A program made the translations under genes and the position numbers. The notes below the pieces were generated by a model. That model was given only the letters and a program-made list of their open reading frames with translations, was not told the origin of the DNA and did not search any database. 64,000 bases of DNA from SAR324 cluster bacterium SAR324-CTD7B (GTDB lineage: Bacteria > SAR324 > NAC60-12): contig LSNO01000081.1 of NCBI GenBank assembly GCA_002082305.1, forward strand, positions 2,041 to 66,040, in the 5' to 3' direction. The stretch's first letter is position 1. The number at the start of each line of letters is the position of its first letter. Positions 52,537-55,523 of this stretch are shown here, piece after piece.

Positions 52537-53302
52537 TAAACACTCCTCAAACAAAAGGTTAATCTGTATTAATTGATGTTACCAATCAGAATAACAAAAT
52601 TAAAAGATTAAACAAATCAATTTAAATATTTTATATTTACACTGAGTTCATTGAGGGCTAAAGGGGAGTTTATACCCGGGGTTTAGAGCAGACTTGAGCA
52701 TGAGAAAGAGGGATATGGAACTTCAGTCAGCAGGCTGATGGCGTTATAGCTTTGGCTTCAAGTCTCTTGTTTTATCACACAATCCAGCAGATCTTTTCCA
52801 TGCTGTTCAGATCATAACCACTTTCGTCAATGTTGACCTGTTAGTCCACATCACCATTGACAACGATATAAAAACCCTTGCCATGCATTCCAAGCCTGCC
52901 CTTCGAAACATCTAGTTCAAGGTCGAGTTTCTTGGAGTATTCATCTTTAAACTGTCTTCGGGCATCTGATCTCAATTGGAAATGGGCATTGTCGTTATCT
53001 TCTTCGTTATTTCGGTTGGGTGCTCACTCTGAGATTTCTCTAGTCGGAATGCAAAGATTGCAAGAAGCACCTTCTCATTTGAAAGTTTTTAATGACTTTG
53101 CCAAGGCGTATTGTTGTTCCTTCATTTCTTCGCTGCTCTCTATCGATCATTGAATTGATAGTCAATGCCTGTCAAAGTCATCGAAACAAACGATTAGACA
53201 AAACCGATTCTCTTCTCTAGGATAACCATATTATCTAATCACAGTTTTACCGTTCATCCCCTAACGCTCCTGAGGGAGCCTCACATATTAAGAAGGAGAA
53301 TT

Positions 53303-55489
53303 ATGACTACTGAAAGCAAATGTCCTGTTATGGGCAAAACACATCAGGCCGCTGGCGGCACAGCGAACCAACACTGGTGGCCGAACCAGTTGAACATGCG
53401 GATCCTGCGACAGAACCATCCACAGGACGATCCCAACGGTGAGGGATTCGACTACGCAAAGGAGTTCAAGAGCCTCGACTTTGAGGCCCTGACGAAGGAC
53501 GTTGATGCCCTGATGACCCAGTCGCAGGACTGGTGGCCAGCCGACTATGGCCACTATGGACCACTTTTCATCCGGTTGACGTGGCACGCGGCTGGAACGT
53601 ATCGTATCACAGACGGTCGCGGCGGTGGTGGTGCGGGTGCACAACGCTTCGCCCCACTGAACAGCTGGCCCGACAACGTCAACCTCGACAAGGCGCGCCG
53701 GCTGCTCTGGCCGATCAAGCAGAAGTACGGCCGGAAGATCTCCTGGGCCGACCTGATTATCTTCGTTGGCAACCGCGCCCTGGAGACGATGGGCTTCAAG
53801 ACCTTCGGTTTCGGCGGCGGCCGCGAGGACATCTGGGCCCCCGACGAGGACACGTACTGGGGACCGGAGACCGTCTGGCTAGACGACGAGCGCTACAGCG
53901 GTGATAGGGAGCTGGCCGAACCTCTCGGCGCCGTACAGATGGGACTAATATATGTTAACCCACAGGGTCCAAACGGCAATCCGGACCCGCTGTTGGCCGC
54001 GCGAGACATCCGTGAAACGTTCCGCCGGATGGCGATGAACGACGAGGAAACCGTGGCTCTAATTGCTGGTGGCCACACGTTCGGCAAAACACATGGTGCT
54101 GCCGAGGAACATTACAAAGGTCCCGAGCCAGAGGGCGCGAAGATTGCTGAGCAGGGCTTCGGATGGACGAGCAGCTTTGGCAGCGGCAAAGGCGGCGATC
54201 AGATCGGCAGCGGGCTGGAGGGCGCTTGGACCACCGAGCCGGCGAAGTGGGACAACGGCTACTATGAGAATCTGTTCGACTACGAGTGGGAGCTGACGAA
54301 GAGCCCGGCCGGTGCGCATCAGTGGACCCCCAAGAACTCCGAAGCGCAGGGCACCGTGCCTGACGCCCACGATTCGTCGAAGACGCACGCCCCCACGATG
54401 CTCACGACGGACCTCGCGCTGGTCACCGATCCGATTTACAAAGAGATCTCGAAGCGGTTCTACGAGAACATGGACGAATTCGCCGACGCATTTGCTCGCG
54501 CTTGGTACAAGCTAATACACCGAGATATGGGACCCGCCGTGCGGTACCTTGGACCGTGGGTTCCCAACGAAGAACTACTTTGGCAGGATCCCGTTCCTGC
54601 CGTTGACCACACTCTGATCAACGATGCGGACATAGGGTCTCTCAAGGCCAAGATCCTCGGCTCAGATTTGTCGATCTCTCAGCTGGTCTCGACCGCTTGG
54701 GCGTCGGCCTCAAGCTATCGTGATACAGATAAGCGAGGTGGCGCGAACGGCGCACGGATTCGCCTTTCACCACAGGCTGAATGGGACGTTAACGTGGCCT
54801 CTGGCATAGCCCCGGTGGTGGCAACTCTCGAAGGGATCCAGCAAGAGTTCAACAACTCGCAAACAGGGGGGAAGAAAGTTTCGCTTGCCGACCTAATCGT
54901 GCTGGGTGGTTGCGCAGCCGTCCAAGAGGCGGCGAAGCGTGCGGGCCAGGACGTGGAGGTCCCCTTCACGCCTGGGCGCACCGACGCATCACAGGAGCAA
55001 ACCGACGTCGAGTCGTTCGCATTCCTCGAGCCGGTCGCAGACGGGTTCCGGAACTACCTCCGGGTGGGCCATAACCTCCAGACAGAGCACCTGTTGGTCG
55101 ACAAGGCGTTCACGTTGAATCTGACGGCTCCCGAGATGACGGTCCTTGTCGGCGGCATGCGTGTCTTGAACGCCAACGCCGGAGCGTCGAAGCACGGGGT
55201 TTTGACTGACCGTCCAGAGACGCTGACCAACGACTTCTTCGTGAATGTGCTCGATATTTCGACGGAGTGGAAGGCTACGTCAGACGCCGAGCAAGAGTTC
55301 GAGGGTCGTGATCGTAAGAGTGGAGAACTCCGATCGACCGGCACTAGGGTCGACCTAGTTTTCGGTTCGAACTCTGAACTCCGGTCCCTCGCTGAGGTCT
55401 ACGCTAGTGACGACGCGCAGCAGAAGTTTGTCAGTGACTTTGTGGCTGCGTGGGACAAGGTTATGAATCTAGATCGCTTCGACCTATGA
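53303..55489 (+). CDS. katG: Catalase-peroxidase KatG
   Basis: 728 aa with the two-lobed heme peroxidase architecture: distal motif [11 protein letters not shown] and proximal His region [11 protein letters not shown]. Strikingly GC-rich relative to its flanks. Confidence 0.95.
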
Positions 55490-55523
55490 TCCATGTCTGC
55501 GGAATGGTTCATAGAGAGAAGTA

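Follow-up and report, generated by a model that had tools for sequence, protein, structure and literature searches.

In the dark and mesopelagic ocean, few bacterial lineages are more abundant than SAR324. In a 64,000-nucleotide stretch of the genome of SAR324 cluster bacterium SAR324-CTD7B (contig LSNO01000081.1; this whole stretch is termed the window), a gene for a catalase-peroxidase, katG, lies near the gene of the peroxide sensor OxyR and differs sharply in base composition from all other genes around it. Where did this katG come from, how much DNA arrived with it, and what did it replace? A reading of the letters alone, referred to here as the sequence-only reading, had proposed that katG and its ribosome-binding site were horizontally acquired and installed at an existing OxyR-regulated position. 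Comparison with syntenic loci (handles beginning with L) points to a wider event: very probably, a native rubrerythrin (rbr) operon beside oxyR was swapped for an imported cassette in which katG was divergent from a Prx5-type peroxiredoxin gene (prx5), after which prx5 decayed and katG was kept.

The foreign katG gene and its nearest relatives

The katG open reading frame (ORF) has a G+C (GC) content of 0.595 and a GC content at third codon positions (GC3) of 0.713. The 44 other non-overlapping ORFs of at least 150 amino acids in the window have a GC content of 0.432±0.026 (range 0.368–0.486) and a GC3 of 0.382±0.040 (range 0.265–0.447), which places katG at z = 6.4 and 8.4, respectively, far outside normal gene-to-gene variation and as the sole outlier among 45 ORFs. 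GC content averaged over a sliding 300 nt climbs from ∼0.39 to ∼0.60 across 53200–53400 and returns across 55300–55600. These values confirm the GC-rich compositional island of the sequence-only reading, and the spurious overlapping ORFs on both strands to which it drew attention are present within katG in the ORF listing. That reading also placed the switch in composition near the start and stop codons; the edges are indeed sharp, but the left switch lies just inside the ORF, as the opening ∼48 nt of katG are already AT-rich (GC 0.44).

The product, of 728 amino acids, is an intact catalase-peroxidase HPI. It scores 1140 bits against TIGR00198 (cut-off 770; residues 11–728) and 1273 bits against NF011635 (cut-off 981), and PF00141 matches it in two stretches, giving the full-length two-domain architecture. 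The catalytic motifs are RLTWH at 91, IYVNP at 216, MAMND at 243 and GGHTFGK at 256, in which we take the distal Arg-Trp-His, the proximal His and the Met-Tyr-Trp adduct to lie, following established KatG biochemistry. A ribosome-binding site, AAGGAG, is located at 53293..53298. The ratio of nonsynonymous to synonymous substitution (dN/dS) among katG alleles is 0.09–0.21, which indicates purifying selection and, to judge from these ratios, a maintained function.

Some 30 protein clusters in metagenomes are 92–100% identical to the window KatG, and all of the contexts retrieved for them are SAR324-like. Beyond these, a group of 738–739 amino acids with 84–87% identity to the window protein includes proteins named as belonging to Chloroflexota metagenome-assembled genomes (MAGs). 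In its representatives (L003, 69% GC with a katG GC3 of 0.89; L012, 65% GC with a katG GC3 of 0.82) katG lies among rpoB, pheT, moeA, rplT and infC and has the genome's own composition. A second group, of 729 amino acids and 80–82% identity, is found on contigs of 0.8–9 Mb; its representatives L015 and L016 have 67% GC, a katG GC3 of 0.91 and the neighbourhood Fur–katG…hisG–hisD–infA–maf. From its hisG–hisD–UPF0262–infA–maf and DUF2948 neighbourhood this group is probably alphaproteobacterial. Further named matches at ∼80% identity come from Acidimicrobiia, Ilumatobacteraceae and Candidatus Rariloculus. The nearest KatG proteins outside SAR324 (82–88% identity), all from genomes with 65–69% GC throughout, are therefore found in unrelated GC-rich lineages and not among relatives of the host, which together with the composition bears out the claim that katG is foreign to this genome.

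The slot beside oxyR and the limits of the imported segment

An OxyR-anchored scan, with one genome per species, returned eight loci from SAR324-cluster MAGs or single-amplified genomes (SAGs) or from MAGs labelled 'Delta-/Proteobacteria'. All eight share the gene order nuo–ilvB–ilvN–oxyR, a slot X, and (grx)–prx–hflK–map–lepB–GT2–argA. OxyR and the flanking genes of the window are 79–98% identical to those of SAR324 MAGs and one SAG, and by these identities its host is a SAR324-cluster bacterium. Slot X is occupied in 7 of 7 informative loci (L004–L010) by ∼2.7 kb of DNA with 34–39% GC that encodes a rubrerythrin of 139 amino acids without a rubredoxin domain, a CCG-domain Fe-S oxidoreductase (RFO) of ∼440 amino acids and a DUF3501 protein of ∼182 amino acids; the cluster was defined by co-localisation of PF02915 without a rubredoxin domain, a CCG Fe-S oxidoreductase and PF12007. 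In L004 (FRAM18_bin343), where the DNA flanking the slot on either side matches the window at 91.5–94.9% nucleotide identity, this rubrerythrin–RFO–DUF3501 operon is kept. No remnant of rbr, RFO or DUF3501 was detected anywhere in the window (tblastn, E > 0.2).

What relatives carry at this position is thus not the low-GC katG or other catalase that the sequence-only reading had envisaged, but an aerobic-type rubrerythrin cluster. Its proposal that katG sits at an OxyR-regulated slot from which residents were displaced is upheld by the seven syntenic loci and by a scar. This scar is preserved in L002 and L018 alone: 3' of katG, these loci have ∼430 bp of GC-rich DNA (0.5–0.66), including the 3' end of an aquaporin gene (…NPARSFGPAI…), and then a low-GC, truncated DUF3501 gene (residues 34–129) that is 89% identical at the nucleotide level to the native gene of L004. 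A truncated native DUF3501 beside katG implies that the rbr operon occupied the slot first.

The features of the locus are as follows:

51592..52536, minus strand: native oxyR, LysR-type peroxide sensor of 314 amino acids from the ATG at 52536
52572..52637, plus strand: residual native OxyR-box-like array (52572..52608) and orphaned rubrerythrin promoter TAAACA-17-TATATT (52609..52637)
52674..52774, minus strand: left junction (∼52674) and apparently foreign DNA 3' of prx5; native homology to L005–L009 stops at ...GGGGAGTTTAT
52775..52989, minus strand: remnant of a Prx5-type peroxiredoxin pseudogene, from comparison with the near-intact copy of L017 and the intact 158-amino-acid copies of L018–L021
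52990..53302, no strand: divergent prx5–katG intergenic region, 313 bp, apparently co-imported and collinear with L018 (314 bp) and L017
53175..53146, minus strand: divergent promoter-like site TTGACA-18-AATGAT facing prx5 (consensus scan)
53158..53194, plus strand: OxyR-box-like array ATAG-N7-CTGT-N7-ATCG-N7-CGAT (pattern scan and conservation)
53195..53223, plus strand: candidate katG promoter TAGACA-17-TAGGAT, with its −35 element abutting the box (consensus scan)
53303..55489, plus strand: katG, catalase-peroxidase HPI of 728 amino acids, intact and foreign by family, composition, motifs and dN/dS
55486..55530, no strand: hairpin overlapping the katG stop codon (55486..55512) and right junction (55515..55530)
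55524..55757, minus strand: native glutaredoxin-like (grx-like) gene, 77 amino acids, the first host gene to the right of the island

The left junction, GGGGAGTTTATA/CCCGGGG, is also present in L002, L017 and L018, which are independent assemblies. On the right, homology to the fuller island of L002 and L018 stops at 55514 and homology to the katG-less L004 starts at 55531; the right-hand sequence of katG, hairpin and grx-like gene recurs in L001, L013 and L014. The grx-like gene is 75–94% identical (tblastn) to its counterparts in those SAR324 loci that have one, has a GC content of ∼0.36–0.37 in relatives, and matches GST_N_3 and, faintly, Glutaredoxin in Pfam. On this evidence from alignment the replaced segment in the window is ∼2.85 kb long, from ∼52674 to ∼55515–55530, and not the ORF alone.

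The left part of this segment is identified by relatives in which it is better preserved. The prx5 gene is near-intact in L017 and intact in L018–L021 (158/159 amino acids, GC 0.53–0.58, GC3 0.68), where it is divergent from katG over a 314-bp promoter region and joined to native oxyR-proximal DNA. The window copy starts with an ATG at 52989, has TGA as its sixth codon and an internal TAA, and has lost the PGAFTPTC active site to a 264-bp deletion at 52941/52942; with two stops and no peroxidatic Cys motif it does not pass as an intact Prx5-type (Redoxin, PF08534) gene. GC content over 52674..53079 is 0.43 in the window versus 0.53 in the intact L018 copy. L001 has a larger deletion (window 52643..53079) that also takes native bases 52643..52673, and thus represents a derived state. 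Because katG, under selection, keeps a GC content of ∼0.60 and prx5 and the intergenic DNA have drifted to 0.39–0.43, the edge at the katG start is deceptively sharp. The minus-strand interval 52770..53150 had also been considered as one dead gene; it has no Pfam or NCBIfam match, L017 and L018 limit prx5 to 52775..52989, and the remainder is intergenic.

No tRNA or tmRNA was found in the window, no terminal repeats at the junctions, and no transposase-sized ORF, integrase or insertion sequence (IS) element in the ORF listings around katG; no Rfam family reached its gathering threshold in the 64 kb. The segment is accordingly not a classical integrative island, and we infer replacement by recombination. 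An inverted repeat of 19 nt, imperfect at 79% complementarity, flanks the katG promoter and gene (53133..53151 and 55503..55521); it is one of 16 similarly weak pairs in 3.4 kb and is probably due to chance.

A history that joins the synteny, scars and junctions can be proposed; inferred in it are how often and in which direction transfer took place, and how the DNA was integrated. The ancestral occupant of the slot would have been the native aerobic-type rubrerythrin–RFO–DUF3501 operon, which a ∼3.6 kb fragment from a high-GC bacterium would have replaced, bringing with it the divergent prx5–katG pair, their shared promoter region and a piece of an aquaporin gene. In the window lineage, prx5 would then have decayed through the codon-6 nonsense change, the 264-bp deletion and the internal TAA, and the aquaporin fragment and DUF3501 remnant would have been lost. 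katG would have stayed intact under purifying selection, slowly shedding GC at synonymous sites.

The candidate control region and the apparent spread of katG among SAR324 lineages

OxyR of the window contains HTH_1 and LysR_substrate domains, is 79–98% identical to OxyR of SAR324 genomes and has cysteines exactly at positions 199 and 208 (...EEGHC199LRGQVMDVC208SQ...). Its best NCBIfam match is the equivalog NF008361; the next family scores 230 bits. The gene is host-like in composition (GC 0.368, GC3 0.277), and an in-frame TTG at 52554, upstream of the ATG, would give six extra codons. The sequence-only reading had katG divergent to a native OxyR with both redox cysteines. Composition and cysteines stand, but the genes are not directly divergent, with start codons ∼766 bp apart and the peroxiredoxin pseudogene in between. 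The arrangement is consequently not the canonical oxyR–katG one that had been assumed; the actual order is oxyR ← prx5(Ψ) ↔ katG.

An OxyR-box-like tetranucleotide repeat, for which the region 53160..53300 had been proposed as the place to look, is present as the four-element array at 53158..53194. It agrees with ATAG-N7-CTAT-N7-ATAG-N7-CTAT at 13 of 16 tetrad positions and with the full E. coli consensus at 14 of 20 specified positions, and it is kept in L001, L002, L017 and L018. In the seven rbr-type loci the conserved oxyR–rbr block, ATTAATAG-N7-CTATCA…AAACGATTAGACAAATCAAT, reads ATAG-N7-CTAT-N7-ATAA-N7-CGAT and is followed directly by TAGACA-17-TATAAT. The candidate katG promoter has the same layout as this native rbr promoter, in which CGAT runs straight into TAGACA-17-TATAAT. 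A 19-mer at 53184..53202, AAACAAACGATTAGACAAA, is identical to the core of the native rbr promoter in L010, and L006–L008 share 18 nt of it (ACAAACGATTAGACAAAT), with the first base alone differing; the 19-mer may have been imported, converted from the rbr promoter, or reached by convergence. Apart from ∼50 bp around the box, the rbr-type loci contain no homologue of the intergenic region 52990..53302.

The window also retains, at 52572..52637, DNA homologous to the oxyR–rbr intergenic block of the seven rbr-type loci. In katG-bearing loci this residual native box has two changes in an otherwise invariant core, AAACGATTAGACA to AAAAGATTAAACA. In L013 the box of the high-GC oxyR–katG pair differs considerably. 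The simplest model is that host OxyR would drive the imported katG from the 53158..53194 site. Hydrogen peroxide would oxidise OxyR at Cys199 and Cys208, the oxidised protein would bind the candidate box abutting the −35 hexamer TAGACA and activate katG, and KatG would dismutate H2O2.

The katG alleles of SAR324 do not appear to be of uniform ancestry. L002 shares the window interval 52177..55514 (the oxyR 5' end, the prx5 remnant and katG) at 95.0% identity; downstream of this, identity falls to 78.5–80.6%. That flank of L002 is 99.4% identical to L018, and the left 762 bp of L002 are 100% identical to the window type and 86% to the L018 type. Within katG, L002 is 99–100% identical to the window at codons 1–180 and 241–420 and 75–90% elsewhere; L014 is 55–80% identical at codons 1–270 and 98–100% thereafter; and L001 has a divergent block at codons 241–420. 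Synonymous divergence (dS) between the window and L001 is 0.22 in katG versus 0.036–0.054 in ilvB, ilvN and oxyR. At the protein level, residues 1–280 of the window KatG are nearest to the 729-amino-acid group (90%) and residues 281–728 to the Chloroflexota group (88%), and residues 601–728 of the L002-type protein are 94% identical to the 729-amino-acid group but only 78% to the window. Identities over nucleotide windows agree with these segment-wise affinities. The L002-type pattern recurs in ENA, NCBI and JGI data, with one such cluster having 290 members, so at least this allele is no one-off chimera. From these identities, the katG block appears to have moved between diverged SAR324 lineages, probably by homologous recombination in the flanks, and its alleles appear to be patchworks whose parts match different outside lineages.

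Two contigs show larger GC-rich tracts. The 5.6-kb contig L013 (1..5598) carries guaB, a MAPEG protein, an OxyR-type regulator and the 5' third of katG at ∼60% GC, joined to a SAR324-type katG 3' part and a grx gene of 36% GC; this is either a more extensive import or a chimera assembled over the shared katG stretch. L014, with flanks 97.6% identical to the window, has 68%-GC DNA 5' of katG (1..132) at its contig end, and here too the tract is either a real larger import or an assembly chimera. In L004, the protein encoded by ilvB (11590..13268) is 95% identical to that of the window at residues 471–573 and only 75% at residues 5–467, from which it follows that flanking housekeeping genes are also recombination mosaics between SAR324 lineages.

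A more far-reaching proposal, which we offer tentatively and hold to be possible, is that the OxyR-controlled SAR324 slot is a cassette-exchange hotspot. In this proposal katG, a leaky public-good gene, would have been patched time and again through recombination with the katG of several unrelated phyla, shuttled with part of oxyR from one diverged SAR324 species to another and alternated within the population with a rubrerythrin system, and the 19-mer would reflect promoter capture or conversion that put the foreign gene under the host OxyR. The proposed sources of the patches are a Chloroflexota-like type, the probably alphaproteobacterial 729-amino-acid type and at least two further N-terminal types (those of L013 and L014).

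The genes to the right of the island have features of their own. The small gene between the slot and the peroxiredoxin gene varies among SAR324 loci: it is glutaredoxin-like in the window, L001, L004, L006, L007, L009 and L014, a rhodanese takes its place in L002 and L018, and neither gene is present in L008 and L010. In L007 a further grx copy is situated between ilvN and oxyR. The window also has a perfect GC-rich hairpin resembling a bidirectional terminator (55792..55815, AGGCGGTCTTAATTGAGACCGCCT, with T-runs on both strands) in the gap that separates its grx-like and peroxiredoxin genes. The peroxiredoxin itself, of the AhpC/TSA type (55845..56315, minus strand), has an in-frame TGA at 56169..56171, exactly at the position of the peroxidatic Cys (…FYVLDWTAT-TGA-SREIPK…). 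The TGA and the frame downstream of it are conserved in 10 of 10 SAR324 loci examined, and a conserved 10-bp hairpin begins ∼22 nt past the TGA. Among NCBIfam models that of the selenoprotein PrxU scores best, though far under its cut-off, and the window showed neither tRNA-Sec nor sel genes. On these sequence features the gene likely encodes a selenocysteine peroxiredoxin.

Competing explanations and known systems

Four other explanations of the island were weighed. The first reverses the transfer, with SAR324 as the source of katG, or invokes a shared plasmid or phage vehicle that delivered the cassette to all carriers. It draws on the 67%-GC lineage of L015 and L016, where a 5'-truncated, frameshifted DUF3501 (8191..8850) likewise lies directly 3' of katG, which would fit a swap of the same kind, or a shared history, in that lineage. 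However, the composition of katG fits high-GC genomes and not SAR324, the DUF3501 fragment of L015 has the composition of its own genome and no nucleotide similarity to SAR324 DUF3501, and the window junctions carry no mobile-element genes or repeats. On the evidence of the window and the loci compared, we consider reversal or a common vehicle unlikely; the fragment suggests that katG independently displaced a rubrerythrin–RFO–DUF3501 cluster in the high-GC L015/L016 lineage.

The second explanation is that of the sequence-only reading, in which only the katG ORF and its ribosome-binding site were inserted, precisely, into an existing intergenic region. It would account for a GC content that changes over tens of bases at both the start and the stop codon and for the host-like GC content (0.39–0.43) of the 630 bp 5' of katG. 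Those 630 bp, however, have no homologue in the rbr-type SAR324 loci; in L017 and L018 the collinear DNA is an intact, GC-rich prx5 with its promoter, and the deletion and nonsense codons of the window prx5 are typical of a decaying imported gene. Insertion of the ORF alone is therefore very unlikely: the foreign segment includes the decayed prx5 and the 313-bp divergent promoter region.

A third possibility is that the island is an artefact of assembly or binning, with a high-GC katG piece misjoined to SAR324 DNA. All of the sequences come from metagenomes, and both L013 (∼60% GC guaB–MAPEG–oxyR joined to a SAR324-type grx) and L014 (its 68%-GC start) look possibly chimeric. The left junction nevertheless recurs (window, L002, L017 and L018), as does the right-hand sequence (L001, L013 and L014), in different ENA and JGI samples and with different assemblers, and the decay products (the prx5 pseudogene, the DUF3501 remnant and the partly ameliorated GC content) are found in SAR324 context only; an artefact is highly improbable. 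Finally, that katG is native to SAR324, with a high GC content due to gene-specific selection (codon or amino-acid usage, or expression) and with rbr-type relatives that lost it, is scarcely credible: its conservation at the locus in the many SAR324-context contigs and its apparent purifying selection would fit, but its GC3 (0.71 versus 0.38) exceeds that of every other window gene including large conserved ones, a truncated native DUF3501 beside it shows that the rbr operon was there earlier, GC-rich non-coding DNA and gene fragments are found with it (prx5, the piece of aquaporin gene and the 68%-GC tract 5' of katG in L014), and its nearest relatives lie in other phyla with matching composition.

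Replacement of the rbr operon by an imported prx5–katG cassette thus remains the preferred explanation, and several observations weigh against it. The best outside KatG is just 86–88% identical, which points to an old event or to a donor not yet sampled. The prx5–katG pair was not found in any sampled genome outside SAR324, and the nearest outside Prx5 proteins (78–80%; contexts L022–L025) have no katG adjacent. No integrase, IS element, tRNA or target-site duplication accounts for the integration. The comparison loci are all metagenome assemblies, and some of the mosaicism, especially that of L013 and L014, could be assembly chimerism. The OxyR-box pattern, which has a single match in the 64 kb and none in 100 shuffles, was relaxed post hoc after the site had been seen, leaving the site a candidate box, and OxyR, at 326.7 bits, falls 2 bits short of the NCBIfam equivalog cut-off of 329. 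Lastly, when third-position changes are polarised on two Chloroflexota genes, the window katG has 116 GC→AT and 12 AT→GC changes (controls, 8/22 and 37/11), but after normalising for 561 GC and 56 AT ancestral sites the per-site rates are similar, so that the test establishes net flux without proving a mutational bias. A large net GC→AT flux is nevertheless seen in every SAR324 katG allele (GC3 range 0.66–0.78), and is consistent with ongoing amelioration of katG, for which it is supportive rather than decisive.

The locus offers a natural example in which the output of peroxide defence is exchanged under one sensor, from a rubrerythrin system to a catalase-peroxidase with Prx5, and in which intermediate states of decay survive in the environment. 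The series of decay states, the parallel juxtaposition of katG and DUF3501 in an unrelated high-GC genome and the patchwork alleles add to its interest. It also carries a caution, since a sharp compositional edge may mark the limit to which selection holds GC content up and not the end of the foreign DNA. Should the mosaic alleles prove real, the study of gene conversion between phyla and of the regulatory domestication of imported genes would have a useful system here.

Control of katG by OxyR is textbook knowledge from the OxyR regulon of E. coli and Salmonella. The SAR324 locus shares with that system a LysR-type OxyR with Cys199 and Cys208, a four-element candidate box of the ATAG/CTAT type abutting the katG −35 hexamer and, as predicted from the gene, a catalase-peroxidase HPI as the peroxide-scavenging output. 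It differs in that katG is xenologous and GC-rich, that the divergent partner of katG is a dead prx5, with oxyR ∼770 bp off and in tandem with prx5, and that the box matches at only 13 of 16 tetrad positions and OxyR scores 326.7 against a cut-off of 329 bits.

The displaced genes correspond to a published peroxide-defence cluster, the aerobic-type rubrerythrin–RFO–DUF3501 cluster (Cárdenas et al. 2016, PMC5114695). The katG-less SAR324 slot has exactly its three-gene composition; in the window the cluster is absent, having apparently been replaced. The main text of that report does not mention OxyR, whereas the SAR324 cluster is divergent from oxyR and has a conserved OxyR-type box. We found no literature report of a replacement of rubrerythrin–RFO–DUF3501 by katG, nor, in searches on SAR324 with catalase or katG, a description of the SAR324 katG locus.

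KatG, leaky and costly in Fe, is the textbook case behind the Black Queen hypothesis for marine bacterioplankton (Morris et al. 2012, PMC3315703). As in that setting, the presence of katG varies among close members of an abundant oceanic lineage. Unlike a simple loss, the katG-less state in SAR324 carries an alternative peroxidase system, rubrerythrin.

It has been stated that 'katG has undergone extensive HGT' (horizontal gene transfer; PMC3315703), and lateral transfer of katG is also described in PMC3523812. The process is a well-known one and the present case a clear, if fairly ordinary, instance of it, with closest relatives in unrelated phyla and a composition mismatched to the host as in other katG transfers, but its scars and patchwork alleles are unusually well preserved. 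In contrast to the known transfers, the recipient site, the displaced operon, the scars and successive states of decay are resolved here, together with apparent intragenic mosaicism and secondary spread inside the recipient clade.

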